Positions 3,361 through 59,714 of a stretch of 64,000 nucleotides of DNA are shown here, piece by piece. The number at the start of each line of letters is the position of its first letter. Position 1 is the first letter of the stretch. The DNA lies in assembly GCA_963797485.1 (NCBI GenBank), contig CAWCPF010000002.1, positions 223,217 through 287,216 of the forward strand, in the 5' to 3' direction. This DNA comes from an uncultured Chloroflexia bacterium. Lineage in GTDB: Bacteria; Chloroflexota; Anaerolineae; Anaerolineales; E44-bin32. The notes under the pieces are model-generated. The model worked only from the letters and a program-made list of their open reading frames with translations. It made no database searches and was not told where the DNA came from. A program made the translations under genes and the position numbers.

Positions 3361-4940
3361 ATGTCATCCTGCTCGAACCTGAAACGAATGATCCGTCGTG
3401 TTTTCGAATCCATTCGCGCTCGACCTTTGCTCAGCCTCGAACTGGCGGCCTTGCTGGCCGGCGCCCTGATCCTTCGATTCACGGACCTGGGCTATTCCAA
3501 CCTGCAGGGCGATGAGATCAAGGCCCTATGTTCGCCCCGGAGTTTCAAATCGATCGTCGGGTTCCTGGCCTTCCTGCTCGCCCAGCGCAAGGGCCCGGTC
3601 GAGTTCATCGTCACTTGCGCAGTTGGCCTGATCGATCCCGCGTTCTCGAGCGAGCTTTTTCTCAGGTTGCCGTTCGCCGTTGCGAATCTGCTCTCGCTGG
3701 CCTGCCTTTTCGTTGTTGCTTGGCGACTGTTTAGCCGCCCTGCGGCCATCTACAGCACTTTCCTGATAGCGGCCAACGGTGTCTTCGTAGCCTTTGGCCG
3801 TTTCGTTCAATACCAGTCCTTCGTCATGCTGGGCGTCTCTGCAAGCCTGATGGCTCTGATCCTGGCCGTCGAACGGGACCGCTGGCGCATCCCTGGGCTC
3901 TATCTGGGGTTTGCCGCCGCGGCCTGCGGCCTGCTTGCCCATTTCGATGCCGCGTTCGTTCTGCCTCCCATGGCCGTGCTGACGGCTCATTGGTGGCTCC
4001 GGGCACGCCGCCGCCCGGACGCCCGCCGGTTGACTTGGCATCTTGTGGGCGCAGGGGCGCTCTTCTTGATTTTGGTGTTCAGCTTCTACGTCGAGTACGC
4101 ACGCCATTTGGGAGCTTTCCAATTCGACTACTGGCAGAAGCGATTCACCGGAGCTGCAACCGACACATTGCGAATAGCACTCTACTACGACCCGGCTCCG
4201 GTTGTCTGGTTCAGCTTGGCCGTTGCCGGCTTAGGGTGTCTTCGATTCCGTTGGAACCTGGGTTGGCAAACGCTTCTGGCCTGGCTATACCGCCGCTGCT
4301 CTTCATGGAGCTACTCTTACGAGATTCCGGCACCCACGCCTACACCTACTTCATGCCATTGCTCATGCTCGGCGGAATCGGCTTGGAAGGGACCGTGTTG
4401 TGGATCAAACGCAGTTTTGGGGGACGGGCATTTGGCATAGCTCGGGCAATGGTGCTGGCGATGCTGCTCGTCAACCTGTTTGCCAGCTATTCGCTCTTCG
4501 TCGACCACGCGCCCGAGTACCCTTGGCAGCCGAAATCTGTTCTCGGCACGAACATGCCGGGCGGCGGCCCCATGAATACGTTTGGTTTTCCCTACAACCG
4601 AGATTGGCGTGCCATCGGCGCATGGTTCGCCGCCCTGCCGAGCCAGAACAAGATCGTGGTCACCAACGAAAAACCGGTGATCGCCGCCTTCTACCTCCCC
4701 AGCAGTATGCACTACCAGTACGAGTGGAGCGAAACACCCGACCAGTTGCCTAACTCCAGGGGCCTCTATTTCTTGGTGGTCGAATACCCTCAGAGCTGGC
4801 AGAACCAACTGTGGGGTTGGTCCGTTCCCCAGTGGCGGGACAAACTCACCCCCACACAGTCCTTCTACAATCCCCAAGGGCAACCTGTGGCCTGGGTCTA
4901 CTTCCTGACCAAGGAACAGCGCGCCCAACTCTTCCGCTGA
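3361..4940 (+). CDS. GT-C fold membrane glycosyltransferase (family 39-like), tandem paralog 3, apparent frameshift near 4288
   Basis: ORFs 3361-4440 and 3990-4940 join as ...LGWQTLLAWL / IPPLLFMELLLRDSGTHAYTYFMPLL..., colinear with paralog 1 (LAWLLPPLAFMELIFKDSRTHAYTY). The start may be the internal Met near 3388. Confidence 0.6.
4326..4375 (+). repeat. 50-bp exact direct repeat, copy 2 (in its native coding context, DSGTHAYTYFMPLLMLGG)
   Basis: Identical to 3183-3232. It lies ~35 nt downstream of the frameshift in paralog 3. Confidence 0.95.
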
Positions 4941-5020
4941 CCATTTTGGCAGGACCTGTCGATTTCTTCCTGTCCCGTTCGTTACCCCTTTGAAACTCGA
5001 TCCCGGCCGGAAGCAAACCG

Positions 5021-5499
5021 ATGGAACCCGTCATCCACCATCAGGTGCGTCTCGCCTGCAGAGCCCAGTCTGCCTTCGAGCACTTCACCCGTGGCGATCT
5101 GCTTGTGAGAATTCCTCACGAATGAGGCCGAAGTCGATCCCGATGTCGGCGGCAAGTACGAGCTGGCCTGGGATCCCGATAACAAACCTCAGGACAGCAC
5201 CGTCGGCTGCCGTAGCACCGCCTTGGCCGACGGCGAGTTGGTGGCGTTCGATTGGAAAGGACCGACGGCGTTCGACGCCGTCATGAACCACGCCCGGCCC
5301 CTGACCCATGTGGTCGTGGCCTATCACCAGCTGGAGGACAGCCCCGCCGCGGCCTGCGACGTAAACCTCATCCATTCAGGCCTGGCGGCCGGGTCCCGGA
5401 TGGGCCGATGCCAGAGCTTATTTCGACCATGCCTGGCAGCAGGTGTTCGAAGCGCTGGCCCAGCTGGTGTCCGCCCCCACGTTGCCTTCTCAACTTTGA
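5021..5499 (+). CDS. SRPBCC/AHSA1-like (START-fold) protein, at least two apparent frameshifts
   Basis: Three frames read MEPVIHHQVRLACRAQSAFEHFT..., then EFLTNEAEVDPDVGGKYELAWDPDNKPQDSTVGC...DWKGPTAFDAV...LIHSG, then WRPGPGWADARAYFDHAWQQVFEALAQLV..., with a stop at 5497-5499. The shifts lie near 5105 and 5385. Confidence 0.5.
5103..5122. promoter_or_regulatory. CRP/FNR-type palindrome variant, TTGTGA-gaattcc-TCACGAA (7-nt spacer)
   Basis: Read directly from the sequence. It lies inside the SRPBCC gene at the site of its first frameshift. Confidence 0.35.
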
Positions 5500-5689
5500 G
5501 CCGCGATCGAGGCGAAAGGAGAACCCATGCTGTACGCGTCTCGATGCCACGTTCATCCAGATCCACGCCCACGGGGGAACCATCGTCTCACCCAAGCACG
5601 CAGTCCCAGATGTCGGCTGGGTCGCCTACTGCCTTGACACGGAAGGCAACCGCTTCGGGATGATGCAGACAGATCCAAGCGTCAGTTGA
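5500..5689 (+). pseudogene. VOC/glyoxalase-family protein, C-terminal fragment (frameshift near 5545)
   Basis: AAIEAKGEPMLYA / LDATFIQIHAHGGTIVSPKHAVPDVGWVAYCLDTEGNRFGMMQTDPSVS matches the second VOC module. It starts immediately after the SRPBCC stop codon. Confidence 0.6.
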
Positions 5690-7859: not shown

Positions 7860-8402
7860 TCAATCATCGTCTTCATGTTCGTGGTCATCTTCCCCATGCG
7901 AGCCGCCGCCTCCCCCACCCGACGAGACGGTATTCGACGCAACGCCGGCGCCGTTGTACAGCAGCACCGCATTGGTGGCATCCAGGTACATCGTGCCGTG
8001 GTCCAGGACGACTTCCCACGCCACCGTGCCCTGGAAATCCACCAGTTCCGGCCAGCGGACCAGCCGGGCGCCGGGCGACAAGTTGAGCGCCAAACCCACA
8101 GCCAGGTCGGCCGAGATGGGATAGGTCTGGCCCGAGCTTTCTTGCGTGGGCGCGGCCTGGGACGCTTCGAGAGTGGCGATCTTCTGATACGCCTGCTCGA
8201 GCTGTTGATTGGCCTGGTCGATCATTTGCTGGTAGGCGGCTTCGCGCTGGTCAATCTGAGCGATCACGGCCGAGTCGACCGAGGCGGAGGTCGGCGTCAC
8301 CGTCCCGCTGTCTGCCGAAGCCCGGCCCGCCACCGCCCCAACGACCACCAGAACAAAGGCTGTCACACCCCCGGCAAACACCAACGTCCATTTGGCATTC
8401 AT
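7860..8402 (-). CDS. PepSY domain-containing membrane-anchored protein with an acidic His/Asp tail
   Basis: Start MNAKWTLVFAGG with GGAGGAG upstream. One TM, a coiled segment, then a PepSY-like ISADLAVGLALNL...VDFQGTVAWEVVLDHGTMYLDA. C-terminus is GGGGGGSHGEDDHEHEDDD. Confidence 0.6.
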   Translation of the reverse strand: MNAKWTLVFAGGVTAFVLVVVGAVAGRASADSGTVTPTSASVDSAVIAQIDQREAAYQQMIDQANQQLEQAYQKIATLEASQAAPTQESSGQTYPISADLAVGLALNLSPGARLVRWPELVDFQGTVAWEVVLDHGTMYLDATNAVLLYNGAGVASNTVSSGGGGGGSHGEDDHEHEDDD

Positions 8403-8474
8403 GTCTACTCTCCTCCAAGGCTGGATACACTCTAATGTCCGCGGCTTGAAAGGCTCTTGGAAGCAGGGCCGGGC

Positions 8475-8492
8475 TTTCCAATCAATTTCCAA
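8475..8492. promoter_or_regulatory. direct repeat TTTCCAA-N4-TTTCCAA (11-bp period) in the divergent PepSY / response-regulator promoter region
   Basis: Read directly from the sequence. An inverted copy CTTGGAA lies at 8456-8462. The 11-bp periodicity is typical of OmpR/PhoB-type binding sites. Confidence 0.35.
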
Positions 8493-8525
8493 GAATGGGC
8501 GGATAATGTGGCTGGCAGAGGTCCG

Positions 8526-9210
8526 ATGAAAATTCTGTTGATCGAAGATGACGTCCGACTGACTGCACTGGTAGCCAAAGTGCTGGCCGATGAGGGCCTA
8601 TCGGTAGATCGGGTTCACACCGGCGATGAAGGCCTCGACCTGGCCCTGCACGGAGAATACGATGTGGCTGTGATCGACTGGATGCTGCCGGGCCGGGACG
8701 GGCCGGCCATTTGCCGGGCGGTGCGATCCGCCGGACGGCCCATCGCCCTACTGCTGCTTACCGCCAGGGGGCAGATTGAGGATCGGGTGGCGGGGCTCGA
8801 CAGCGGCGCGGACGATTACCTGGTTAAACCATTTGCGATGGACGAGCTTCTGGCCCGAAATCCGCGCCCTGGGGAGGCGATTTGCTCCGGCCGCGCCCGA
8901 CCCGTGGGAGCTGCGCACGGGGGACCTGGTGCTCGACCTGAAAGCCCATACCGCCCGCCGCGGCCCCAAGGCACTGAATTTGTCCAAGACCGAATGGGGA
9001 CTACTTGAGTTTATGCTCCGCCATCCCGGCCAGGCCTTGACCCGCGAACAAATCCTTGACTACGTTTGGTCGTACGATCACGATGTCCAGCCATCCCTGG
9101 TCGATGTCTATATCTCCTACCTGAGGCGCAAGCTCGATCTCTCCGGCCGGGCCGATCCCATCCACACCGTCCGCGGCGTCGGGTATCGGTTGGAGCCGGA
9201 AGATGTTTAG
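8526..9210 (+). CDS. OmpR/PhoB-family response regulator, apparent frameshift near 8858
   Basis: MKILLIEDDVRLT...DWMLPGRDG...DDYLVKPFAMDELLAR, then (other frame) IRALGRR...LSKTEWGLLEFMLRHPGQALTREQILDYVW...TVRGVGYRLE. An extra A in cgaAAtc explains the shift. Confidence 0.85.
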
Positions 9211-10598
9211 ACCGGTCCGATTGCGTTTGACCTTGCTGTATGCCGCCGCGGGAGTGATCCTCATCTGCCTGCTGGGCGGCGGGACCTACGCGTTGCTCGG
9301 GTTCTTCTTCCAGTCGACCACCGATCTGGCGCTCGAGCACGTCATGGCCCAACAATTCGTCGCATTGGGCGTCCCTCTCCCGGCTGAGCTCTCCCAAGCT
9401 GACCGCCTGTGGGTGTCGAGCCAGGCCGGAGTAACAGTCGGCGGCTTGTTTCCTACCTTGCCGCATCGAACGGCTCCGGATAATTCCGGGGAGGCTGAAG
9501 AAGACACTCAGAGTCCCGACCATGAGCTTTCCGAGGCAGGTGAAGAGAACGGGCTGGATGCCGAGCTGGCAGCCGTATTTGTCTCGGCGCTCAGCGACCA
9601 GGGCGAGCTCCTTCCCGGGTTCAACATCTCACCCGCGCCCCTGGCGCCCGACCGCCAGGCGGTGGACAAAGCGCTTGAGCAGGGATCCGATCTGCGCACG
9701 GTCGTCTCCCCAAGCGGAAGCCGGGTCCGGCTGCTGACGTACCACGTCCCGGACGTGGCTGAGCCATCGATCATCCAGGTGGGACGCTCGCTATCCGACC
9801 AGGATCGGATTCGCGGCCAACTCGTCCTGGGCCTGGTCATGCTGGGCGGCGTTTCGCTGGCCCTGCTGGCGCTTGGAAGCTGGTTTCTGGCCGGGCAGTC
9901 GCTCCAGCCGACCCAGCGGGCGGTCGAACGCCAACAGGCGTTTGTGGCCAATGCCAGTCATGAATTGCGTACTCCCCTCACGCTGATCCGCGCCACGGCC
10001 GACGTGGCCCGCCGAGCATTGAAGGAAGATGACCCTCAGAAGAAGCTCCTGGACCAGATCCTGACTGAGAGCGATCATATGAGCCGGCTGATAGAGGATC
10101 AGCTGCTCTTATCGCGCATCGATTCAGAGGAACTCACCATCACACAGAAGCGGGTCGGATTGCCGGACCTGCTCGAGTTCGCTGCGCGAGACCGTATCCC
10201 GCTTGGCCGGAGACAAAGGCGTGAGACTCGAGGTGCGGCCGGCCGAAGGCGCCGTCTGGGCGGATCCCACCCGGTTGCGCCAGGTCCTGCTGGTGATCCT
10301 GGACAACGCCATTCGCCACACGCCATCCGGTGGTTGGATCCGGATGGAAACTGAGCTCCGAGGACACGAAGTCGTGCTCAGCGTGACCGATTCCGGCCCG
10401 GGGATTGCGGCCCATGATCTGCCCCACGTCTTCGAGCGTTACTACCGGGGAGATCCGGCCCATGCCGGGACTGGGACAGGATTAGGGCTGTCGATCGCCA
10501 AGGGCCTGATTGAAGCCCAGGGAGGCCGCATCGAAGTCGAGAGCCACGCGGGGTCTGGGACGATCGTCCGGCTTCGTCTGCGGGCCATTCAGGGCTAG
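9203..10598 (+). CDS. sensor histidine kinase (HisKA + HATPase_c), apparent frameshift near 10190
   Basis: Two TM segments, H-box FVANASHELRTPLT, then in the second frame N/G boxes LLVILDNAIRHTP, DSGPGI, GTGLGLSIAKGLIEAQGG. ATG 9203 overlaps the response-regulator stop. Confidence 0.85.
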
Positions 10599-10622
10599 CT
10601 GGCGGCCCTTAGCCAAGCGGCC

Positions 10623-11279
10623 ATGTATCAGCAGGATTTCATCAAGCGCCTCATTCTCCAATTCACCCAAGTCATGCTGCAGATCGCCGGCTTGTCACAG
10701 GCCGGGCGTCTCGGGGAGGCCCTGGCGCTGATCGATCAGACCTACGACGAATTGTTCGGCCTGTCCTCGAGCGTCGTGTTCTACTCCTCGGCTGAAGAGT
10801 TGATCCAGCGGGTCTCGAGGGGGGATCGTGATGACCCGCAAAGGATCCGCATCCTGGCTGATCTGCTGCGATCTGAAGCTCAAGTTAACCAGGCTCGTGG
10901 CCAGGATTTCGACGCCCACCAGCGACGACTAAAGAGCTTGGATCTCCACCTGGCTGCGGCCCGGATGGATCCGGCGCTCGACCCCGAATCAACCCTCGGG
11001 ACGGTCCTCGAACTCCGGGACGACATCCAGTCCGGCGGCATGCCGGCTCAGACTCAGGCGAATCTTTTCTTCTACTTCGAGGACCACGGTCACTACCGCC
11101 ACGCGCTGGACACCCTGGAGGCCTACCTCAGCCGGGCAGGGCGGCCGGAAGAAGTGCGTCCGCACGTGCTCGATTTCTGCCGCCGCATGCTGGCGCTGCC
11201 CGAGGCCGGGCTGGCCCAAGGCGGCCTTTCCCGAGCGGAGGTCGAAGCCGTCTTGGCGCGGGAGTCACGGCGGGCCTGA
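10623..11279 (+). CDS. hypothetical helical protein
   Basis: 218-aa intact ORF in good coding context. I recognise no catalytic motif. Confidence 0.5.
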   Translation: MYQQDFIKRLILQFTQVMLQIAGLSQAGRLGEALALIDQTYDELFGLSSSVVFYSSAEELIQRVSRGDRDDPQRIRILADLLRSEAQVNQARGQDFDAHQRRLKSLDLHLAAARMDPALDPESTLGTVLELRDDIQSGGMPAQTQANLFFYFEDHGHYRHALDTLEAYLSRAGRPEEVRPHVLDFCRRMLALPEAGLAQGGLSRAEVEAVLARESRRA

Positions 11280-11627
11280 CCGCCGTTCGCTATCACAGCC
11301 GGGCATGCGCCTTGCTCACCTTGAGCGACGCAGCGGCGATGCCTGGGCCTCGGGCCCTCGGCATGACACTTGAAAAGCATGTCATTCCGAGGCAGGCGCA
11401 GCCGGTGCAAGCCCTCCCCATGCTGGTCCCCCGAATCTTGGAGTTGGGAGAAAGGACCAGGAAGCGGTGCTGTCATAACGAGTTCCTGGATTACCTCAAG
11501 GCGCGTATCGGCGGACCCCAGCCACACACGCCCCTGGGATGACAGCTAAAAGCCCAAAACACACGGAGGACGACCGGCGCCTGAGAAACACGCTGCCGTA
11601 TCTCCCTGAAGTCATCCAAGAGACGGC

Positions 11628-11645
11628 TTGTGAATTCCTTCACAA
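11628..11645. promoter_or_regulatory. CRP/FNR-type palindrome TTGTGAATTCCTTCACAA
   Basis: Perfect 7-4-7 palindrome, ~75 nt upstream of the glycosidase start. Identical 18-mers occur at 25992 and 61517. Confidence 0.5.
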
Positions 11646-11718
11646 TTCCCCGCAAAGTCCTAGAGCCTCGACCGAGGCCTGGCCTGCGGTGGTGGTATCC
11701 TGATCCGAGTTCGCCGGC

Positions 11719-13333
11719 ATGGGCATGGAGCCCCGAGAACACGTGAAGCGACTCAGACGAGCGGCATGGTTGATCGCCAGCCTGGCCATGATGGCGGCGC
11801 AGGGACAGAGCGGATCGGCCGGCGAGTGGCGACAGATTGCCGATGGCGTCAGCTTCCAGATGTTCAACCTGCCCGGCCCAAATCGCGCCTACGTCGTTCT
11901 CATGGACCGAAGCAATCCCAATGTGACCCTGGACACGGCCATCGCCGGGGGACGGATCACCGAGGGCAAGGAAACCGTCAGCCAGATGGCGGAGCGCTAT
12001 GACGAGACGCTGGGCTCGTGGGAGCCGGCCTGGGGATCGCGTGACCAGGTGGTGGCGGTCATCAACGGCTCTTTCCACAACGAGGAGACCGGCAGTCCGC
12101 TGAGCGGGATGGTGCAGTCCGGCTGGTACCTCAAGCGTTTTGATGATCTGGGGGGCGGCAGCGGGTTCGCCTGGAAGCTCGATCGGGGCGCCTTCATCGG
12201 CGGGTGCGTCCGCCATCCTCCGGAGGGCCAGTTGGTCACGTATCTCGAATCCGGAGACCAGCAGATCATCGATGGGATCGACGACCGTCGACAGGGGGAC
12301 GAGCTGGTCGTGTACACACCGGCCTTTGATTTCCGGACGCACACCTCCGACTTGGGGATCGAAGTGGTGGTCGAACTCGATCAACCCTTCACCATCCTGC
12401 CTTATCCCCAGATGGTGCACGGGGTCGTGCGGGCGATCCATGTCGACCAGGGGAACTCCCCCATCCCATTTGATTCGGTCGTCCTGTCGGCCAGCGGCGA
12501 TGCCGCCAAGACTCTCCGGGCTCACGCCCAAGTGGGAGCCCGAGTTCGGCCTGTCCACACTGATCCAGCACTTTAAAGCCAACTGCCGCACGCCGGATGG
12601 GGACAACTGGTCGGAAACGTATGCCAGCCTGTCGGGGAGCTTCGTCTTCCTCGAAGATGGAGAGATCCAATCGTTTGACGATCTCGGGGCGATAACGCCC
12701 TCCCCGCGGACGGCCGTTTGCTTCAATGATGACAGCATTTACTTTGTGGTAGTGGATGGCCGCGATGCGGCCCACTCGATCGGGATGACGATGGACGGAT
12801 TGGCCCACTTTTGCCGTGATCGGCTGGACGCCGATTGGGGCATTAACCAGGACGGCGGCGGGTCGTCAACGCTTTGGCTGAACGGCAAGGTCATGAATCG
12901 TCCGTCGGATGGGCACCAGCGCGCCGTGGCCAACGGTCTCATGATGGTCGAGGTCAAACCACCAGAATTCTCCGATCGCTACCACCCCGGCGACAGCATC
13001 CGGATAAAGGACCTACTCGATTTTCGCCTCGGGCCGGGGAACAACTACCGGGGGCCCGGGGACCTGCCCGCTGAAAGCCAGGTGACGGTTGTACACCACC
13101 TCAATGGACTGGACGGGGTGCGGGCCACGAGTGAGTATTGGTGGCAGGTCGAGTACCAGGGACAATTGGGATGGGTTCCGGAAAGCGCCATGGAACTGGT
13201 CACGCCGGCGGGGCCGACCCCTTCAGACCCGGGACAGACCCAGATTGTGCCTCCAGACCCCGTTCAGGCCTTGCTGGCCAATCCTAGGTGGATTTGGTCC
13301 CAGGCCCCGTGGCTGAGCCAGGTCTGGCCCTGA
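11719..13333 (+). CDS. phosphodiester glycosidase family protein (DUF2233/NAGPA-like) with C-terminal SH3 domain, apparent frameshift near 12535
   Basis: N-terminal signal-like segment, INGSFH..., then in the second frame PRTAVCFNDDSIYFVVVDGRD...GINQDGGGSSTLWLNG, and an SH3b-like tail (YWWQVEYQGQLGWVPESAMELV). Confidence 0.7.
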
Positions 13334-13369
13334 CCGCGGCGTCCATTCCGCATCTCCCCCCTGCTCGGA

Positions 13370-14999
13370 TCATAAGTCGGGCCAGCTGCAGCTCTGGGTC
13401 TGATCGCCCACCTGGACCGTCCAGAATTGGGAGTTTTCCAGCCTGGTGACCGGATAGGCCGCCAGGGCCGGTGCCAAAGGCCGCAGCATTTTCAAAGCCT
13501 GCGCCTCGCTGAATCGGTAGGACGGCCAGCCGGCCGTCGCCGCCCGGTCCTCCAGAACCGCCAGGTCGCACGCCAGGGCTGGAAGCAGGCTGTCACGCGC
13601 CTCGGCGGGGAAGGTCTGGAATCTCTCAACCAGAGGCGCCACCGAGTCGGTCGAGAGAGTAGACAGATAGCCAGCGTCGAGTTCGCCGGCCCTCGAGGGG
13701 TTGGCGAAATTCTGTTCCACGATGAACGCATCCACGTTGAGCAAGTTGAGGCTCAGGCAGAATCCAAGCGCGCCGGCGGCACACGCCACGGCAAACCCGC
13801 GCAAGCGATCCGTCAGCAGCAAGGCCAGGAACGCCAGGAACAGGAGCCCCATCCACAAAATGGCCACATGGGTGTACGTCCGGAGCCGGCTGAAGCCGTA
13901 GGCTTCCTCGTACAGCAGCAGGCGTGTGAACGCCGATGCCAGGATGATACCGGTGAGGCCCACCAGCAAGGCGCTCAACCCGCCGAACCCGGCGCGCTGG
14001 CGGGCTCGATCACGGCGTGCCCACGCGCCGAGCGCCAGGATCAAGCCCAGTGTGAGAACGGCCAGGAACACCAGCTCGGCGAAGCCGCGGCGGGCGTACT
14101 CGGCGTAGGTGTACCCGGCGGCTGTGATGTTGCTCTGGCCGCCAAACAAGTATCGGAACTGCACCCCCACAAACGCGGCGAACAAGACGTCGACCGCACC
14201 CAGCACGACCGCCGATTTCGGTGAAACCGATGAAGGGACTTAAGAGCGGCTGGTCCAGACCCACCAGGCGGCGGCTTTCGGCGCGCCGCAGGGCCGCCAC
14301 CAGCGCGCCCAGGGTAAACAAACCGCTCAAGATCAAGACCGTCAGGCGGCCCATATACTCGAAGAAGCGCGCCAGATCGAGCCAATCCAGGGCGCGCTTC
14401 ACATAATCGCCGAAGACCAGATCGGCGGAGCTTAGCAGGACCAGAAACACGATCAGAATCGGAAAGGCCAGCAGCAGGCCCCGCCCGACGCCGGCCAGGG
14501 TGGATTGGGACTGCCGCTGGCGCAGCAGGCGAGCCTGGGTCTCCGACAGCACCCGCCAGGGCCTGAACCAGGCCTCCAGCGGCGGGATGACCAGCCCCAG
14601 GCCGAAATCGGCGAAACCGAACGCCATCAGGTCTTTGGACCTATAGGTCCGGACAAGCAGCGCCAGTCCGCATAGTGTCAGAATCACATCCAGGAAAACG
14701 GTCAACGGTTCGGATCGGAACGCCGGCAGGACCGACAGCACGGCCACCGCCGCGCCTAGACCCAGGCTTGGGGCCGAGGGCTTGACGCCTTCCTGCCAGC
14801 CCAACCCGATCAGGGCCGCCAGGCAGAGCCAGGTCCAGATAGCGAAAGACACACCCAGGGGGCGGCCGTAGAAGAGATATTCGAAGGCGGTGCCCAAAAC
14901 GAGCCCGGCGGCCGCCAGCCTTAAGGGGCGGCGAAAGCCGGAAGGCTGGGCGGTGGCTTCGACTTCGAGGGCGGGCGTGTCGGCCGGGATGGTTGCCAT
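13370..14999 (-). CDS. DUF4153/DUF4173-family polytopic membrane protein, apparent frameshift near 14215
   Basis: ORFs 14010-15119 and 13370-14206 join at ...SPFIGFTEI / VVLGAVDVLFAAFVGVQFRYLFGG. Start MATIPAD with AAGGAG 8 nt upstream. Confidence 0.6.
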
Positions 15000-15205
15000 G
15001 CTGCAGTCTCCTTGAGGGTCCGAGCGGAAGGCGTCCTTCACCCGCCAGGGGAACCCATGCGCGGCGGTGAGTCCACTATGGCCAACCAGGGCTGTCAAAA
15101 GACGGCAAGCGACTCTCAAAGCCCTCCAGATAGGCTAGGATGAGGGCGTTCTTGCGTGGCCCACACGGCCGGCCGGGCCCAAAGCCGTGCCCCTGGGGGC
15201 GGCTG

Positions 15206-15771
15206 ATGGACAGACCCGTCTGGATCCACGTCATCCCCGAGGCCGATGCCAGCGGTGAACTGGCGGAGCTGTACGACCGCTGGCAGGACCGCCGTCACCA
15301 CAAGGTGGACAACATCCTGCGGGTGCATTCGCTGCATCCTCGGACCCTGGGCGAGCACGCCGAGCTCTACGACACCACCATGCACGGCCCCTCCGGGTTG
15401 AGCCTGGCCGAGCGCGAGATGATCGCCGTGGTGGTGTCGTCCCTCAATCAGTGCCACTACTGAATGACCCACCATGCGGCCGGTCTGGGCCGCCTGCTCC
15501 GCCGGCGTCCGGATGCCGAAGCCCAGGAGGCGGGCCTGAAGACAGACCACACAGCGCTCGACCTGGCTCCACGCGAACGCTCCTTGCTGGACCACGCCGC
15601 CAAGCTGACCGCACGCCGTGGGATATGGCGGAATCCGACCTGGGTCCGCTGCGCCAGGCCGGACTGAGCGACATCGACATCCTGGACGCCAATCTGACGG
15701 TGGCTTATTTCGCCTACGTCAACCGCCTGGCCCAGGGACTGGGGGTCGAAGTCGAGCCATACGTGGGGTAG
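15206..15771 (+). CDS. carboxymuconolactone decarboxylase (CMD/AhpD) family 'peroxidase-related enzyme' with an in-frame TGA at the CxxC (Sec candidate); separate frameshift near 15612
   Basis: MDRPVWIHVIPEADASGELAELY...LSLAEREMIAVVVSSLNQCHY[TGA]MTHHAAGL...LDHAAKLT, then PWDMAESDLGPLRQAGLSDIDILDANLTVAYFAYVNRLAQGLGVEVE. A missing C in acCCgc explains the later shift. Confidence 0.75.
15476..15493 (+). promoter_or_regulatory. SECIS-like hairpin GCGGCC-GGUCUG-GGCCGC, 12 nt downstream of the in-frame UGA
   Basis: Perfect 6-bp stem with a 6-nt G/U-rich loop. Its position and loop resemble the minimal E. coli fdhF SECIS. Confidence 0.45.
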
Positions 15772-15802
15772 GCGGCGGGCGCGGGCGGTCCCGGCAGCGA
15801 CA

Positions 15803-16733
15803 TCACGGGCCGGGAAACTCCGGCAGGACGAGTTCGGCCAGGGCGGCCAGCCCGTCCAGATCGTCCAGCTCAAGCCACTGCAGCATGATGCGCTGGACCC
15901 CGGCGCTCTGGTAGGCGTGCAGTTGGGGCAGGATTTCATCCCCGACCCCGACGATGATGGTGCGCCGGCGCTGGGCCTCCACGCTGGAACCCCGGGCTTG
16001 CGCCTTGGCCTCAAGACCCGCAGCCGTGGCGCTGAACAGGATGTTGATCATCAGAGAGCGGCGCACCTCTCCCGGATCGCGGCCGCGGGCTGCCAACAGC
16101 CCGTCCAGGTGCCGGCTCAGATCGCTGAACTCGGCCGGGGAGACAAAGTTGCCGTTCCACTCGTTGGCAAAACGGGCCGCCAGAGGCATCGTCCGCCGGC
16201 GGCCGCTGCCCCCGATCAGCAGGGGCGGCCGCCCGGGCGCCAGGGGCGGCGGGAGCAGCAGGGCGTCACGCAGCTGATAGGTGCTGCCCTGGAACGAGAC
16301 CGGCTCCTTCTCACGCAGCAGCCGGTAGATCACCTCCACCCCCTCCTCGAAGCGGTCGAAGCGTCCTTCGCCTTTCAGGAGCGGGAACCCGAACATCTCG
16401 TGTTCCAGATCCTGCCAGCCGCTGCCCACGCCAAGCACCAGGCGGCCGCCCGAGAGCGTGTCGATGTCCTTGCCCATCCGGGCGATGAACACCGGGTGGC
16501 GGAACGAGACCGGCGCCACCAGCGGGCCGAACTCGATCCGGGTGGTGTGGCTGGCGAGCCAGGTGAGCGACGTCCACAACTCGAGCGAGTCCTCGATGAG
16601 GATGGTTGGGGATGGTGAAGTGATCCGAACGGAACAGGCCGGCAAAACCCAGTTCTTCGGTTGCCCCGGCGATGCGCTTCCAGCGGTCCCATGTCAGGCC
16701 CTGCTGGCCTTCGATCATCAGGCAGACATCCAT
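15803..16733 (-). CDS. LLM-class (luciferase-like) F420/flavin-dependent oxidoreductase, apparent frameshift near 16615
   Basis: MDVCLMIEGQQGLTWDRWKRIAGATEELGFAGLFRSDHFT, then SPSPTILIEDSLELWTSLTWLASHTTRIEFGPLV...LVLGVGSGW.... Confidence 0.75.
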
Positions 16734-16874
16734 GGCTTTCTTAGCCCTCTCCCGCGGCCGTCCCGGTGGTCTCCCCATCATAGCGGGTTCCCACAGGGAG
16801 GCCAGCCGGAGCCGCCTGCGCCGGGTCGGCCCTGGCCGGGAACCGGTTTCAGGTTAAACCGTCTTAAGCGTGCC

Positions 16875-17348
16875 ATGAAGACCCTACAAACGGTCCCATT
16901 CCTGTTTGTGATATTCCTCACAAGCTGCGCCGGAGCTGGGACGGCCGGCTCGCCTGCTTTGGCCGCGCCCAGCCGCACTCCGGGCCAGGCGCCCCCGAGC
17001 GCCACGCCCGCCTTGCCGGCGGTCACCCCGCTGTCTGTTGACCAACTGCCTCCCGAGGCGGCGGCCATGGTCGGGCGTGTCCAAGCCGATCTGGCTGAGC
17101 GCCTGTCGGCCCCGCCGGGCGCGACCATGACCTTGCTCTCGGCCGAGGCCGTGGTGTGGCCCGACGCCAGCCTGGGCTGCCCCCGCCCGAACACGGGCTA
17201 CATCCAGGTGGAGACGCCTGGCTACCGGATCGTGCTGTTGGCCAACGGGGGCGACTACACGTACCACACGGATGCGAGGGACAACTTCGTGCTGTGCATG
17301 AACGGGGAGCCGGAGAATCCGGGGACCGAGCCCCAGGTGGCACCGTGA
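16875..17348 (+). CDS. lipoprotein, unknown function (paralog A)
   Basis: Signal peptide plus lipobox (FLFVIFLTSC), a Pro/Ala-rich linker, and a conserved C-terminal module VVWPDASLGCPRPNTGYIQVETPGYRIVLLANGGDYTYHTDARDNFVLC. Confidence 0.7.
   Translation: MKTLQTVPFLFVIFLTSCAGAGTAGSPALAAPSRTPGQAPPSATPALPAVTPLSVDQLPPEAAAMVGRVQADLAERLSAPPGATMTLLSAEAVVWPDASLGCPRPNTGYIQVETPGYRIVLLANGGDYTYHTDARDNFVLCMNGEPENPGTEPQVAP
16906..16923. promoter_or_regulatory. CRP/FNR-type palindrome TTGTGAtattccTCACAA inside the lipoprotein signal-peptide codons
   Basis: Read directly from the sequence, 31 nt downstream of ATG 16875. Confidence 0.35.
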
Positions 17349-17601
17349 TCGCCGCTGGTCATCGAGGGCCGAACAAATACGGGTGTCCGACAGGGCGTCT
17401 GTCAAACCGCATGCAGGCGCTCGATTCGGCGCCACGCAGTAGAGTACGGATGCGCTTCGCGGCCTCGGGCCGATCCGCGTAGAATTTGCAGCCGATGTCC
17501 GGTCGGCCCATCCTCGTGACGGCTGACTGGCCTCCGATGCGCACCGACGGGCGAGCGAACAACCCAGTCTCCGGGAACCTTTCTCAAGGTAGATTCGTCC
17601 T

Positions 17602-18135
17602 ATGGGCATGAACACGCTGCGAATGACCTCCCTTGTCTTGGCCGTTTTCCTTGTCGGCTGCGCCGGAAGGCCCGCCCTGCCCACCGCCGGAGCCTCCGGG
17701 GTTCCGGCCACCCAGGCCAGCCGGCCTTCGGCCACACAGGCTCAGCCATCCACCCCTGCCGTCACTCAACCCCCGGCCGCCACCCCGCTGCCAACCCAGA
17801 AGCTCCCCCAGGATGCGCGTTTGATGGTCGACAGAGTGAAGGCAGCTCTGGCTGATCAGCTGTCGGTCAAGGGGGAGACGATCCAACTCGCGCTGGCGCA
17901 AGCCGTGATCTGGCCCGACGCCTCTCTAGGCTGCCCACGCCCGGGCACCGATTACATCCAGGTGCAGACGCCAGGCTTTGTGATCTCCCTGCAGGCGGGC
18001 GGAGAGACCTACCTGTTCCACACCGACCAAACCTCCAACTACGTCCTTTGTCCGGCCGGCGAGGGGCCCTTTCCTGAGATCCCGGTCACGCCCTCCGGCA
18101 TCCAGGATGGTGTACCCTGGCTTCCGGTCAACTAG
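17602..18135 (+). CDS. lipoprotein, unknown function (paralog B)
   Basis: Lipobox LVGC, a PT/Q-rich linker, and the same module VIWPDASLGCPRPGTDYIQVQTPGFVISLQAGGETYLFHTDQTSNYVLC. TAGATT lies 6 nt upstream of the ATG. Confidence 0.7.
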   Translation: MGMNTLRMTSLVLAVFLVGCAGRPALPTAGASGVPATQASRPSATQAQPSTPAVTQPPAATPLPTQKLPQDARLMVDRVKAALADQLSVKGETIQLALAQAVIWPDASLGCPRPGTDYIQVQTPGFVISLQAGGETYLFHTDQTSNYVLCPAGEGPFPEIPVTPSGIQDGVPWLPVN

Positions 18136-22729: not shown

Positions 22730-24254
22730 CTACTTGGGAAATCGGGTCAACACCGTGGCCGGGGAGGGCACCTGAAGCCGCGATCCGATGTCGACGGATT
22801 GGCCATCTTTGGCGACCAATCCGCCCTGGAAGATCCCCAAGTGGGTGTCCGGGGCGGTGGAGTCCATATCGACATACGCCTGGCCGAGCAGGTAGCCGTC
22901 CGAATCGACGGCGCAGGATGTGACCTTCCCCACGACGCGCCCACGATGATCGACCACCGGATCCCCGTAGTGCGCCATGCGCACGCCCTTATCATCGAAG
23001 CGGAAGCGGACGACTTCGCCCCGGCGTTCGTGCTCCTGTGCCAGGAACGCGCTGCGCCCGGCGAACCACGGCTTATAGGTCTTGACATAAGCGCCAAACC
23101 CGGCATGGCCAACGCCGAGACCCATCTCCCCGGCCATCTCGTGACCGTACAGGGGCAGCCCGGCTTCCGTCCGCAGCGAATCGCGAGCCCCCAGACCCAC
23201 CGGCTTCAGACCCATCGGATGTCCGGTTTTCAGGATTGCTTCCCACAAAGCCGGGCTCGCGTCCGGATGCACGAAAAGCTCATACGCCGTGCGCTCACCG
23301 GTATAGCCGGTCCGGCTGACCACCAGATCGAACTTGCCAAAGCGGCCTTCCATCACGCCGGCCCACTTCAGCCCGCTCAGCCTCTCCGCCGAAGCGTCGT
23401 CGGTCCCCAGGCCCAGCAAGATGTCCCGGCTGCGGGGGCCCTGCAGGGCCAGGTCGACGCGCATGTCGCCGCGCGGCATCGGGCAGGCGCAGGTTGCGCA
23501 GGCGGCAGTGGCGCCCAAGGGCCAGCGCCCACGGCCGGGCTTCGTCGATCCGGGCGGAACCGCTCTGCACCGCCTGGAGCCAGGCCCAATCCTTGTCATC
23601 ATTGGAGGCGTTGACCACTATCATGTAGGTTTCGGCGCCCCGGCGGTAGATCATCAGGTCATCGAGCACGTGCCCATCCGGGTCCATCAAATGTGTGTAA
23701 TGCAACTCGCCGATCTCGAGCTTGGCCACGTCGTTGCCGACGACGCTATCCAGGAACGCAGCCGCGCCGCTGCCCTCGGCCTGGTAGACGCCCATGTGGC
23801 TGACATCGAACAAGCCGGCCGCATGGCGCACGGCTAGATGCTCCTCGACCACCGACGTGTACCAAACCGGCATTTCCCAGCCGGCGAAGGGGACCATCTT
23901 GGCGCCCAGGGACTTGTGGGCTTCGAACAGCGCCGTCCGGCGCAGAGTCTCGGGCTCGGCGTCGTCCCAGGCGAAGGCCGGGAGCGGATCGCCTTCATCG
24001 GCTGGGTTCACGCCGATGTACCAGGGCTTGTCGGTCCCGTCGGCTATCTGCTTGGGCGCGCCGTCCTTGGCCGGACCGGCGTCGCTGACGACCACCGGCC
24101 CGGGCAGTTTTCGCTCCAGGTCTGCCGGATCGAAAGCCACAAAGCCGTCGGAGAGATCGCGCAGCCAGGTTGACAGACGCGGCACGGCTTCGGCGGGGAC
24201 GGCCAGGGACCACACCGAGCCGTCCTTGGGCCGGGTCAGGCTGGCCTCGATCAA
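22730..24254 (-). CDS. gcvT: aminomethyltransferase (GcvT-like) module, apparently the C-terminal part of a SHMT fusion; frameshifts near 23500 and 24262
   Basis: RRTALFEAHKSLGAKMVPFAGWEMPVWYTSVVEEHLAVRHAAGLFDVSHMG..., then DLALQGPRSRDIL...SRTGYTGERTAYELFV...GLGARDSLRTEAGLPLYGHE. Upstream, a degenerate second GCV_T-like domain links to SHMT. Confidence 0.7.
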
Positions 24255-24268
24255 CTGGCCCCCGGCGT

Positions 24269-25856
24269 CTACGCGTACACGACAGTTTCCCCGGGCGCCA
24301 GCTCGTCCGCCCGGGCCGTGGTGGCCCAGGTCAGGAATTCGCCTGCCTCCGGTCCGTCGATCTGGATCGCCTGTCGCCCCTTCCCCGGAACGGGGTCATC
24401 CAAATAGTAAAAATGAGGGTAGCCATGTTCCCCCGGCTGGGTATCGATACCGGCAGCCTGAGCGAGATCGCGCACGCGCAGGCGAACATCGTTCAGGACC
24501 TCGAAATCGACCTTGGCCCGGGCCGAGCCTCCCTTGCGGCCGCCCGAGGCATACGGCAGGCAGGCCTTGAGCACACGGGCAATCAGCCGGCCCACTTCCC
24601 GGCTGCCATCCGCGTCGAAGCCGCGCTGCGTGATCCAGGGCGTCCCCAGCCGGATGCCGGAGGGGTTAAAGAGCCGAGCGGTCCCCAGGGATCGTCTGGC
24701 GGTTCACGACCAGCCCGGCCAGATCCAGGATGCGGGCCGCCAGATCCCCGGAGAGTGCCGTGCCGTCTTCCCCGGTCACCGACTTGCAGTCGACGTTGGT
24801 GAGATGGGTGTCGGTCCCCCCGAACGGAATGCGCAGGCCTTCGCCCGCCAGGGCTTCGGTCATAGCCACACAGTTGGTGACGATCTGATGCTGGAGTGTC
24901 TTGAATGCCTGCGAGGCGGCGAGTTTGAAGGCCACCGCCTGCGCGGCGATGGTGCTGATATGCGGTCCACCCTGCTCGCCCGGAAACACGGCCCGATCGA
25001 TGGCGCGCGCCAGCTTGGGCGACGCCGTCAGGATCACCGCCCCGCGCGGACCACACAAGGACTTATGGGTGGTGAAGGTGATCACGTCGGCGAAGCCAAC
25101 TGGCGATGGGTAGGCTCCGGCGGCCACCAGTCCGGCCACGTGGGCGATGTCGGCCAACAGGTACGCGCCCACCTCGTCGGCGATGGCGCGGAAGGCGGCC
25201 CAGTCCACAGCCCAGGCGTACGACGAGAACCCGGCGATGATCATCTTGGGCTGGTGCTCGCGGGCCACGGCCCCGACCTGGTCGTAGTCGATCCTTTCCG
25301 TCTCGGGATCGACGGTGTAGTGCACGGCATGGAAGTACTTGCCCGACCGGTTGACCGGCGAACCATGGGTGAGATGGCCGCCGTGGAGCAGGTTCATGCC
25401 CATCACGGTGTCGCCCGGCTCGAGCAGCGCGTGGTATACGGCGTTGTTGGCCGGGGCGCCAGAGAGGGCCTGGACGTTGACGTACAGGTTGTCGGCCGAC
25501 ACCCCGTTGGCGGCGAAGACCTCGGCGCAGCGCCGGCGGGCCAAGGACTCAACCAGATCCACGTATTCGACGCCCTTGTAGTAGCGTGGATCCGAGTAGC
25601 GGCGGTAGTGCGCCAGGCGCGCCGGGATGTCCAGCAGCTCGGACTCGGTCATCCGGCGTGTGTCCTCATCCGGATAACCCTCGGCGTAGATGTTGTTAAA
25701 GGGCGTCCCGAGCACGTCAAGCACGGCCCTGGGGGCACTGCTCTCGGATGGGATCAGGATCAGCTTGCGGTACTGGCGCTCGGTTTCGAACTCGATGATG
25801 TCGGCCACAGCCGGATCGAGCTCGGCCAGGCTCCCGCGGATCAGGAAATCAGGCAT
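24269..25856 (-). CDS. glyA: serine hydroxymethyltransferase with a C-terminal extension continuing into the GcvT-like module; frameshift near 24668
   Basis: LILIPSESSAP, TFTTHKSLCGPRG (the PLP lysine motif), and ...IPGDRSA / NPSGIRLGTPWITQRGF. The open frame then continues (...PHFYYLDDP...QIDGPEAGEFL...) with no RBS or start before the AMT domain. Confidence 0.8.
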
Positions 25857-56238: not shown

Positions 56239-57703
56239 TCAGGCGATGGATTTCTCCTGAGGCAGCGCCGGGCGGCAGCACAAGACCAGTTCCTTGGCGG
56301 CCTGCACCTCATCCAGCCGGCCAAAGGGCGTGGTGTGGGGCGCCGATTTCAAAGTCTCCGGTTCGGTGCGCGCCTCCTGAGCGATCTTCAGCAGCGCCTC
56401 GGCAAAGGCATCCAAGGTCTCCTTGGGCTCCGTCTCGGTCGGCTCGATCATCAGGGCTTCATGGACAATGAGCGGGAAGTAGTACGTCGGCGGGTGAAAG
56501 CCATAGTCCATCAGCCGTTTTGCGACATCGAAAGCGCGGATGCCGGGGGCATCCTCCCACTGGCCCTCGACCACGAACTCGTGCATGCAAACTCGATCGA
56601 AGGGTGCGTAGTAGGTGCCGGCCAGGCGGGATTTGAGGTAGTTGGCATTCAGTACGGCATGGTCGGCGATTTGACGCATGCCTTCCCGTCCGTACATCTT
56701 GAGATAAGCCATGGCCCGGACGAGCAGTCCGAAGTGGCCGTGGAAAGCCTTCACCCGGCCGATGGTCTTGGCGGGCGTGATCAGCGAATAGGTCGGCCGG
56801 CCTTCCGGATCGACCGTCCGCTCAACCAGGGGGGCAGGCAGGAAATCCGCCAGAGCCTGGGATGCGCCTACGGCGCCAGCCCCGGGCCCGCCTCCACCGT
56901 GCGGCGTTGAGAAGGTCTTGTGCAAGTTGTAGTGCAGGACGTCGAACCCCAGGTCCCCGGGGCGGACCACACCCAGCAGCGCGTTCATGTTGGCACCGTC
57001 GCCATACACCAGCCCGCCGCAAGCATGTACCGCTTTGACCACATCCAACACATGCTCTTCGAACAGCCCTAGGGTGTTCGGGTTGGTCAGCATCAGGCCG
57101 GCAACGGTCTCATCACAGGCGGCGCGCAGCGCTTCGAGGTCGACATTGCCTCGAGCGTCTGAAGGCAGTTCCACCACCTGCAGGCCGCTCATGGCCGTGG
57201 TGGCGGGATTGGTGCCGTGGGCCGAGTTGGGGATCAGGATCTTGACCCGGGCCGTGTCGCCCCGAGCGCGGTGGTAAGCCTTGATCATCAGGATGCCGGT
57301 CAGTTCGCCATGCGCGCCCGCCGCAGGCTGCAAACTCACCTGGGCGAAGCCGCCGATCTCCTGGAGCCAGCACTGAAGCTCATGCATCAACGCCAGATTG
57401 CCCTGCACCGTGGCTTCAGGCTGGAGCGGGTGCGAGAAGGCGAAACCCGGAAGCCGGGCGGCGTCTTCATTCAGCTTGGGGTTGTACTTCATGGTGCAGG
57501 AGCCCAAGGGGTAGATGCCGGTATCGATCGAGTAGTTGAGCTGAGAAAGCCGGACGAAATGGCGGACGGCCTGGAATTCGGATACTTCGGGCAGGGGCAG
57601 GTCGTCTCGCACCAAACCCGGCGGCAGTTCGGCCTGCGGGACATCGGGATCCGGGAAGGTCACACCGGTCCGCCCGGGCGAGGACAGTTCGTAGATCAGC
57701 GGC

Positions 57704-57711
<8 letters not shown>
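56239..57711 (-). CDS. gcvPB: glycine dehydrogenase (aminomethyl-transferring) subunit 2
   Basis: 490 aa. The PLP-lysine region is HYNLHKTFSTPHGGGGPGAG. Confidence 0.9.
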
Positions 57712-59046
<1,335 letters not shown>

Positions 59047-59047
<1 letters not shown>

Positions 59048-59439
59048 CAGTGGGCGCGCCCCTCGCAGTACTTCTCGTAGGCCGGAGCATCCATCAGGTC
59101 TTTGACCTGCGCGGCATCGGCCAGTTTGACCTTCACCATCCAGGCCTGGCCATAGGGGTCCGAGTTCAACCATTCAGGATGACCGGCCAGATCAGCGTTA
59201 ACCGCCACCAGCTCGCCCGACACCGGCATGTAGACATCCGAAGCGGCCTTGACCGACTCGACCACCGCCACGACGTCTCCCTTGTTCAGGTGCGCCCCGG
59301 GCTCGGACGTGACTTCGAAATAGACCACATCCGAAAGCTGCTCCTGGGCGAAGTCACTGATGCCAACGGTACCCTGCTCGCCTTCCACCTTGATCCATTC
59401 ATCGTTTTCGGTGTACCTGCAGTCCGCCGGAACCTTCAT
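59047..59439 (-). CDS. gcvH: glycine cleavage system H protein
   Basis: MKVPADCRYTENDEWIK...VESVKAASDVYMPVSG (the lipoyl-lysine motif). AAGGAG lies 6 nt upstream of ATG 59439. Confidence 0.9.
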
Positions 59440-59479
59440 CTGCAACTCCTTGGCGGCTCTCAGGCCGCGCTCCGTGCCA

Positions 59480-59697
59480 AATAAAAAAGAGGACGCACGT
59501 TGAATTCATGTGCGCCCTCTGTCGGGAACCTGAGAGATTTACCGCCTGTCGGCGGCTTGCCCCGTCGGTGTCTGTCGACTTTCCAGAGGCTCAGCCAGAC
59601 CGGGTCCTTTTACCTGAGAGTTTCACCCCTGCGCCGTTCGCGTGCGAGGGGCTTGCCCCTTCGGTGCCCGGGCGAACCGGGTCTCTCCCCGACCTGT
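59480..59697 (-). promoter_or_regulatory. tandem glycine riboswitch with an intrinsic-terminator expression platform
   Basis: On the minus strand, aptamer 1 is GGGGAGAGACC..GCACCGAAGGGGCAAGCC..GAAACTCTCAGGTAAAAGGAC. Aptamer 2 is CTCTGGAAAG..ACACCGACGGGGCAAGCC..AATCTCTCAGG..GACAGAGGGC. The terminator is GAGGGCGCAC-11 nt-GTGCGTCCTC-TTTTTTATT, and its 5' arm overlaps aptamer-2 P1. Confidence 0.9.
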
Positions 59698-59714
59698 CTT
59701 CAATTGTGTCTCGC

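Follow-up and report, generated by a model that had tools for sequence, protein, structure and literature searches.

Does the in-frame TGA at the redox centre of an AhpD-like gene in an uncultured Chloroflexia genome end translation, or is it read as selenocysteine (Sec)? The gene lies at 15206-15771 on the plus strand of a 64-kb window, by which we mean the whole stretch of 64,000 nucleotides (nt) that was analysed, and it was singled out in a reading of the DNA made without database searches (the sequence-only reading), which proposed that the UGA is recoded as Sec. The conserved TGA, the conserved frame and a downstream hairpin support that proposal: with a probability of about 0.88, the locus is predicted to be an AhpD-like (COG2128/TIGR01926, CxxU) selenoprotein gene with an in-frame bacterial selenocysteine insertion sequence (SECIS). 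We observed that the product belongs to this family, that the TGA stands in a Cys column, that the TGA is conserved together with its frame, and that the hairpin and its loop are under constraint.

The gene and its product

The features of the gene that bear on the question are the following.

15206-15771, plus strand: AhpD-like or 'peroxidase-related enzyme' gene (TIGR01926, CMD fold), placed by profile matches and ortholog starts
15416-15418, plus strand: Glu71 codon GAG, 12 residues ahead of the first Cys, part of the proton relay; Glu in 78/78 homologs
15452-15463, plus strand: redox motif C83-H-Y85-U86 (TGC CAC TAC TGA), the CxxU centre, from the homolog alignment
15461-15463, plus strand: in-frame TGA, the predicted Sec86 codon, at the second Cys of C-x-x-C, from ortholog and homolog comparison
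15473-15475, plus strand: His90 codon CAT, four residues past the Sec; His in 77/78 homologs
15609-15611, plus strand: frameshift site CTGACC-GCACG, one base short, from ortholog comparison

The start codon is the ATG at 15206, fixed by orthologs that start MKRPAWI or MNRPAWI, and the stop codon is the TAG at 15769-15771. Two interruptions, the in-frame TGA and a 1-nt frameshift, break the gene; bridging both, with Sec at the TGA and the missing base put back, gives a product of 188 aa. Frame 2 of the plus strand reads MDRPVWIHV...SSLNQCHY, then the TGA at 15461-15463, then MTHHAAGLGRLL...LDHAAKLT, exactly at the coordinates that had been given from the sequence alone. Past LDHAAKLT the family-typical RTPWDMAESDL...NRLAQGLGVEVEPYVG continues to the stop in the -1 frame. 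The sequence-only reading did not spell out this second break; its references to a 'joined product' and to 'indel errors common' in the assembly only implied it.

The joined product had been assigned to the CMD/AhpD family, and it matches NCBIfam TIGR01926 over its full length (138.6 bits, cutoff 81.8, profile positions 2-177 of 178) as well as PF02627 CMD (42.2, cutoff 23). Among solved structures, 3c1l, 6k40 (D. radiodurans AhpD), 2pfx, 2oyo and 2prr come closest. Alignments of 3c1l, 6k40 and 2pfx (E = 5e-28 to 3e-22) show the motif N-x-C-x-Y-C with Cys in the column of the TGA. Among 78 full-length homologs that column holds Cys in 55, Trp in 13, Gly in 8 and Ser in 2, and the TGA therefore falls on the second Cys, as had been predicted. 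The other residues of the relay are E71 (78/78), C83 (73/78), Y85 (78/78) and H90 (77/78).

Conservation of the TGA and of the frame

The nearest relatives found by protein search (77-90% identity) are half-length entries only: C-terminal halves of 103-114 aa that start MTHHA..., and one N-terminal entry that ends ...NHCHY. The databases hold the gene as fragments of 85 aa and ~103 aa, which is the mis-annotation to be expected of a selenoprotein. Gene callers yield two open reading frames (ORFs) because an ATG abuts the TGA on its 3' side, in the window and in 18/19 orthologous loci.

The ortholog set comprises 19 loci that amount to 11 further distinct sequences (12 with the window), drawn from uncultured Chloroflexia metagenome-assembled genomes (MAGs; Microflora Danica long-read bins), JGI and ENA metagenomes, Logan assemblies and NCBI MAGs. 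TGA is found at the Sec codon in 19/19 loci and in 12/12 distinct sequences including that of the window. Short-read contigs (NODE_ and Logan; SPAdes and MEGAHIT-style) are among the loci that bear it, so the TGA is no long-read artefact. Synonymous divergence (dS) among the orthologs averages ~1.35 per pair, and the ratio of nonsynonymous to synonymous divergence (dN/dS) is 0.057 before the TGA and 0.106 after it. This strong purifying selection on both sides of the TGA indicates that both halves are translated in the same frame.

One orthologous locus, L003 (CAZMSI010000215.1, 3392 bp), is binned as 'uncultured Sideroxydans sp.', and the ortholog it encodes shares 84% identity with the window protein. 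All other genome hits are Chloroflexia MAGs, and the L003 contig is probably mis-binned.

A candidate SECIS downstream of the TGA

The hairpin and its loop have these coordinates.

15476-15493, plus strand: SECIS-like hairpin with a 6-bp G+C stem (GCGGCC/GGCCGC) and a 6-nt loop, from sequence and folding
15482-15487, plus strand: apical loop GGUCUG, nt 22-27 if numbering starts at the U of UGA, identical in letters and positions to the loop of E. coli fdhF

The perfect hairpin reported by the sequence-only reading, exactly 12 nt past the TGA, is present as described (GCGGCC at 15476-15481, GGTCTG at 15482-15487, GGCCGC at 15488-15493). Its stem can be extended across a mismatch by the pairs C15473-G15496 and A15474-U15495, and its folding energy is -12.8 kcal/mol for the 18-mer and -13.7 kcal/mol for a 24-nt segment. 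All 13 of 13 sequence variants fold into a hairpin at the same place, in one of two registers: the first has six perfect pairs and a GGUCU[G/U/C] loop; the second, found in the L001 and L019 types that make up half of the orthologs, has 4+2 pairs, a bulged C on the 3' side and a GGUCU loop. The L001-type hairpins are weaker, at -6.8 kcal/mol for the 24-mer and -8.1 to -10.4 kcal/mol for a 48-nt stretch.

The published model of the bacterial SECIS (bSECIS) has a loop of 3-9 nt, a stem of 4-16 bp and G in the first two loop positions, with 16-37 nt from the UGA to the loop and a minimum free energy of at most -7.5 kcal/mol (PMC13188914). A SECIS check of the hairpin, suggested along with the sequence-only reading, was made by applying this model by hand to the window and the orthologs. 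The window hairpin lies within every limit (6-nt loop, 6-bp stem, GG, 18 nt, -12.8 kcal/mol). An equally good SECIS-type hairpin follows 1.2% of the 1709 TGA trinucleotides on both strands of the window.

Constraint on the nucleotides themselves is visible in the orthologs. Loop columns 22-26 read GGTCT without exception across the 12 distinct sequences, and the Gly codon in the loop (residue +7 from the Sec) is GGT in 12/12; GGT accounts for 11% of Gly codons in the long ORFs of the window. The gene has seven invariant Gly columns, and the other six mix all four Gly codons. In a 9-codon sliding window, the fraction of synonymous differences reaches its minimum for the gene (0.21-0.22) at codons -1 to +12, compared with a mean of 0.47 and a next-lowest value of 0.31. 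Together these results support a hairpin that would behave as a bacterial SECIS.

Points against recoding and alternative explanations

Several results weigh against reading the TGA as Sec. Shuffled versions of 15455-15530 fold just as well overall as the region itself (z = -0.05), so thermodynamics alone is no evidence for the hairpin; its position, loop motif and conservation are. No Rfam family matched 15380-15600 at permissive thresholds, the hits to livK (17 bits) and mir-1208 (14 bits) being at chance level. RNAalifold run on 12 orthologs gave a 4-bp consensus and not the hairpin, and the fixed-register pair count for register A showed no compensatory changes. In register B, two stem positions have double changes of the compensatory type (C-G to U-A in five sequences, C-G to G-C in one), which speak for the hairpin; the covariation is modest, with only 12 of 500 shuffles excluded. 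The modest covariation and the failure of RNAalifold are explained by a shallow clade in which the stem shifts register, and we therefore put the weight on how each sequence folds, on the invariance of the loop and on constraint at synonymous sites. The stem also differs from the SECIS of E. coli fdhF: the bulged U17 is absent, and the window stem is a perfect 6-bp G+C helix.

The Sec machinery was sought in the window and the flanks of the loci, which amount to little of a whole genome. No selA, selB or selD was seen in the 64-kb window, whose ORF translations were read by eye, or in the flanks, and ARAGORN, run on the window and 14 loci, detected no tRNA-Sec. Unusual 8/4 tRNA-Sec forms have been reported in Chloroflexi (PMC5389517), and ARAGORN might miss them. 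For the phylum Chloroflexi, both the Sec-decoding trait and tRNA-Sec are documented (PMC1794560, PMC5322559, PMC5389517, PMC13326102). The Sec machinery of this particular lineage is the main gap in the case, and our confidence is about 0.88. A reassigned code was also considered and rejected: TGA closes 22/38 long ORFs, more than any other stop codon, in a window of 64.5% G+C. A scan of the window found no other in-frame TGA in a convincing coding context.

If the TGA were a true stop, the C-terminal half could be made by termination and reinitiation at the adjacent ATG, giving a two-piece protein that lacks the second redox residue. Such a restart is formally possible, given the adjacency of TGA and ATG in the window and 18/19 loci; the 85-aa and ~103-aa fragments are annotated everywhere, and no Sec machinery was seen in the window or the flanks. 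Against it stands the orthologous locus L019, which has ACG (Thr) after the TGA (...CHY-TGA-TRHHAAGLARL...) and whose annotated downstream ORF begins only 60 nt further on; the remaining protein is conserved all the same, and a conserved downstream frame with no restart codon argues against a split gene. Orthologs that terminate here with a separate C-terminal gene, the outcome that the sequence-only reading had named as fatal to its proposal, exist in automated annotation only, and the ACG of L019 contradicts them. Just ahead of the ATG, neither the window nor any ortholog has a Shine-Dalgarno-like run of purines. The stop would also have to coincide with the very column of the catalytic Cys, in a family for which Sec forms have been published, and never be TAA or TAG in 12 diverged sequences, though these two codons end 16/38 long ORFs. 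Finally, a split gene gives no role to the nucleotide constraint on the hairpin and its GGU loop. We consider this explanation very improbable. A sequencing or assembly substitution in a true TGC or TGT (Cys) codon is less probable still. The assembly is error-prone, but its visible errors in the window are indels and not substitutions, and the same TGA stands in 19/19 related loci from independent assemblies, short-read ones among them. The sequence-only reading had held such an error to be less likely than an indel; the comparison effectively refutes it.

The frameshift raises a different possibility, namely that the lineage has a Sec gene of which the window copy has been inactivated by a 1-nt deletion at ~15609-15611; if the shift were real, the window copy would be a pseudogene. 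The shift is present in the sequence, and L008, the closest relative of the window, shows frame breaks too. However, the L008 breaks are at other sites, and the sequence past the shift in the window is still perfectly family-typical. Most orthologs read ACC CGN or ACG CGN at the site (K-L-T-R-T-P-W; L006 has CAG), and the missing base is most simply one C of a CCC run that has been shortened. Relative to the L001 and L002 orthologs, the window changes frame six times between 8.4 and 16.8 kb (~8859, 10170, 12545, 14215, 15610 and 16595), or about one indel per 1.4 kb, and the matches to two Pfam profiles, DUF4153 and GCV_T (aminomethyltransferase), are both spread over two frames. Frameshifts thus affect five or more other conserved genes within 8 kb, a pattern typical of long-read assemblies that have not been polished, rather than of gene decay. 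The break at 15609-15611 is accordingly very probably an assembly indel, and inactivation of the window copy seems unlikely, though less so than a split gene. ORF-based reading of the indel-rich regions of the window (8400-16800 and 22733-24703) needs frameshift-tolerant methods.

Proposed mechanism and implications

Sec insertion, SelB binding, enzymatic activity and a physiological partner are what we infer for the AhpD-like selenoprotein. The UGA at 15461-15463 would not be read as a stop in translation. The hairpin 12 nt downstream, with its apical loop GGUCUG, would act as a bacterial SECIS and recruit SelB-GTP-Sec-tRNA(Sec) to the ribosome with the UGA in the A site, so that Sec would be inserted as residue 86. 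The predicted product is a 188-aa, all-helical thiol-type oxidoreductase of the AhpD/CMD fold, with a redox centre Cys83-His-Tyr85-Sec86 that has Glu71 and His90 on either side. Such an enzyme may cycle between the selenol/thiol and selenenylsulfide states and either reduce hydroperoxides or re-reduce a peroxiredoxin-type partner.

Reading the gene in this way corrects its annotation across the clade, since all public records retrieved split it into 85 + ~103 aa. It would imply that an uncultured Chloroflexia lineage decodes UGA as Sec and needs selenium for some of its oxidative-stress or redox chemistry. It would also provide a natural example of a coding-region SECIS that constrains both a codon (GGT is fixed) and a residue (Gly in place of the family's usual Ala).

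Sec and Cys forms across the wider family

The Trp entries in the Sec column prompt the question of what their DNA encodes. DNA was read for two of these 13 'W' entries, P0004 (L020, 491-1036) and P0021 (L021, 303-851), and in both it has TGA; these two are therefore Sec forms that were mistranslated under a code in which TGA is Trp. In the P0021 cluster, the 182-aa 'W' versions lie on contigs of <2 kb; longer contigs, up to 52 kb (Tara Oceans, Neomarinimicrobiota), have this gene in a truncated version of 81 aa. P0004/L020 and P0021/L021 are 46-53% identical to the window protein and have GG at nt 22-23 and a hairpin. The longer loop motif GGUC at nt 22-25 is shared by the Chloroflexia clade and the P0021 sequences.

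Residue +7, whose codon lies in the loop, differs between the forms. It is Gly in 12/13 'W' forms, in all Chloroflexia Sec forms and in 5/55 Cys forms; the Cys forms have Ala there in 44/55. This distribution suggests that the SECIS loop dictates Gly at +7. The TIGR01926 Sec form could then be a single old invention whose in-gene SECIS was carried across phyla, forcing the change from Ala to Gly at +7, with the family partly hidden in databases; we give this history an even chance. If it is true, much of the family is concealed in protein databases: some entries are fragments of a split gene, and others are full length but have Trp for Sec, the latter ascribed to code-4 gene calls on short contigs.

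Other replacements also occur at the redox centre. In P0014 (L022, 327-887) the Sec/Cys position is encoded by a genuine GGA (Gly), which differs from TGA by one base, and a hairpin still follows just downstream; Gly may have replaced Sec recently here, or the protein may be inactive. In P0067, P0070, P0076, P0077 and P0079, Ser and Gly replace both redox residues.

Neighbouring genes and other features of the window

Two genes flank the AhpD-like gene in the window.

13373-15119, minus strand: DUF4153 membrane protein, the upstream divergent neighbour, frameshifted near 14215, syntenic in the orthologous loci
15806-16781, minus strand: luciferase-like (LLM) oxidoreductase, the downstream convergent neighbour, frameshifted near 16595, also found in the orthologous loci

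In most orthologous loci a gene of ~710 aa without a Pfam hit (3472-5606, minus strand; L011 and L014-L017) lies between the AhpD-like and luciferase-like genes. It is absent from L008 and from the window, where the flanking genes are almost adjacent (15772-15805).

Elsewhere in the window, a tandem glycine riboswitch with two aptamers (59516-59700, minus strand; 68.6 and 33 bits) immediately precedes gcvH-gcvPA-gcvPB (56242-59505, minus strand; GCV_H and GDC-P Pfam matches). Fragments of gcvT and the glyA (SHMT) gene lie apart from this cluster, at 22.7-26.0 kb, and the arrangement is ordinary. The tandem paralogous ORFs at 16329-17345 and 17593-18132, both on the plus strand, have by eye signal-peptide or lipoprotein-like N-termini and Pro/Ala-rich linkers, and share the C-terminal motif WPDASLGCPRP.T.YIQV.TPG...HTD....VLC. 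At 3-2913 on the plus strand, two consecutive paralogous ORFs for large membrane proteins share the motifs 'NEKPEIAGFYLP' and 'NEKLAIAMFYLP'; read by eye, they look like glycosyltransferase family 39 or ArnT-type proteins.

Comparison with known systems

AhpD-like CxxU proteins entered the literature as a new selenoprotein family with 27 sequences from the Sargasso Sea (COG2128; PMC1088965), and among the families of the Global Ocean Sampling (GOS) data they rank fourth in abundance with 299 sequences (PMC2398784). A 2026 review lists them as 'AhpD-like protein, TIGR01926, CxxU' (PMC13188914). The mechanism proposed here is nothing new in this respect, AhpD-like CxxU selenoproteins having been catalogued since 2005.

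NF041238, the AhpD_rel_CFYUT (seleno)protein ('hypothetical protein 1' of the Sargasso Sea), has a distantly related AhpD-type domain that also carries CxxU. Membership of the window product in it was rejected: the score is 52.3 bits against a cutoff of 175, and only the C-terminal half of the 357-position model is aligned.

The window hairpin has G22 G23 U24 C25 U26 G27 at the same distances from the UGA as the SECIS of E. coli fdhF, whose sequence was verified in 5419 E. coli genomes. The stem begins 11 nt after the UGA in fdhF and 12 nt after it in the window, and the window hairpin has no clear lower helix.

The catalytic residues can be compared with two characterized relays, that of M. 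tuberculosis AhpD (MtAhpD; Glu118, Cys130, His132, Cys133, His137) and that of P. aeruginosa PA0269 (Glu36, Cys48, Tyr50, Cys51, His55) (PMC3141380). Their common pattern E(-12)-C-x-[H/Y]-C-x-x-x-H maps to E71, C83, Y85, U86 and H90 of the window product, which shares a fold family with MtAhpD, PA0269, 3c1l, 6k40, 2pfx, 2oyo and 2prr and would have Sec where MtAhpD and PA0269 have the second Cys. The partner of MtAhpD is AhpC or the lipoamide system; the window gene has no adjoining ahpC.

The closest counterparts remain the AhpD-like selenoproteins of COG2128/TIGR01926 ('AhpD-like 1' of the Sargasso Sea and GOS data; e.g. MCB9421940.1). Like the window gene, they match the same NCBIfam model over its full length, have CxxU with Sec in place of the second Cys, and carry, just 3' of the UGA, a SECIS-type hairpin whose first loop positions are G. 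The marine members P0004/L020 and P0021/L021 have TGA at the same codon. The window clade differs from the known members in its source, uncultured Chloroflexia MAGs and soil or terrestrial-type metagenomes, and in its sequence, being only 45-56% identical to the nearest other AhpD-like forms. By every sequence-level criterion the window gene agrees with the AhpD-like selenoprotein family.

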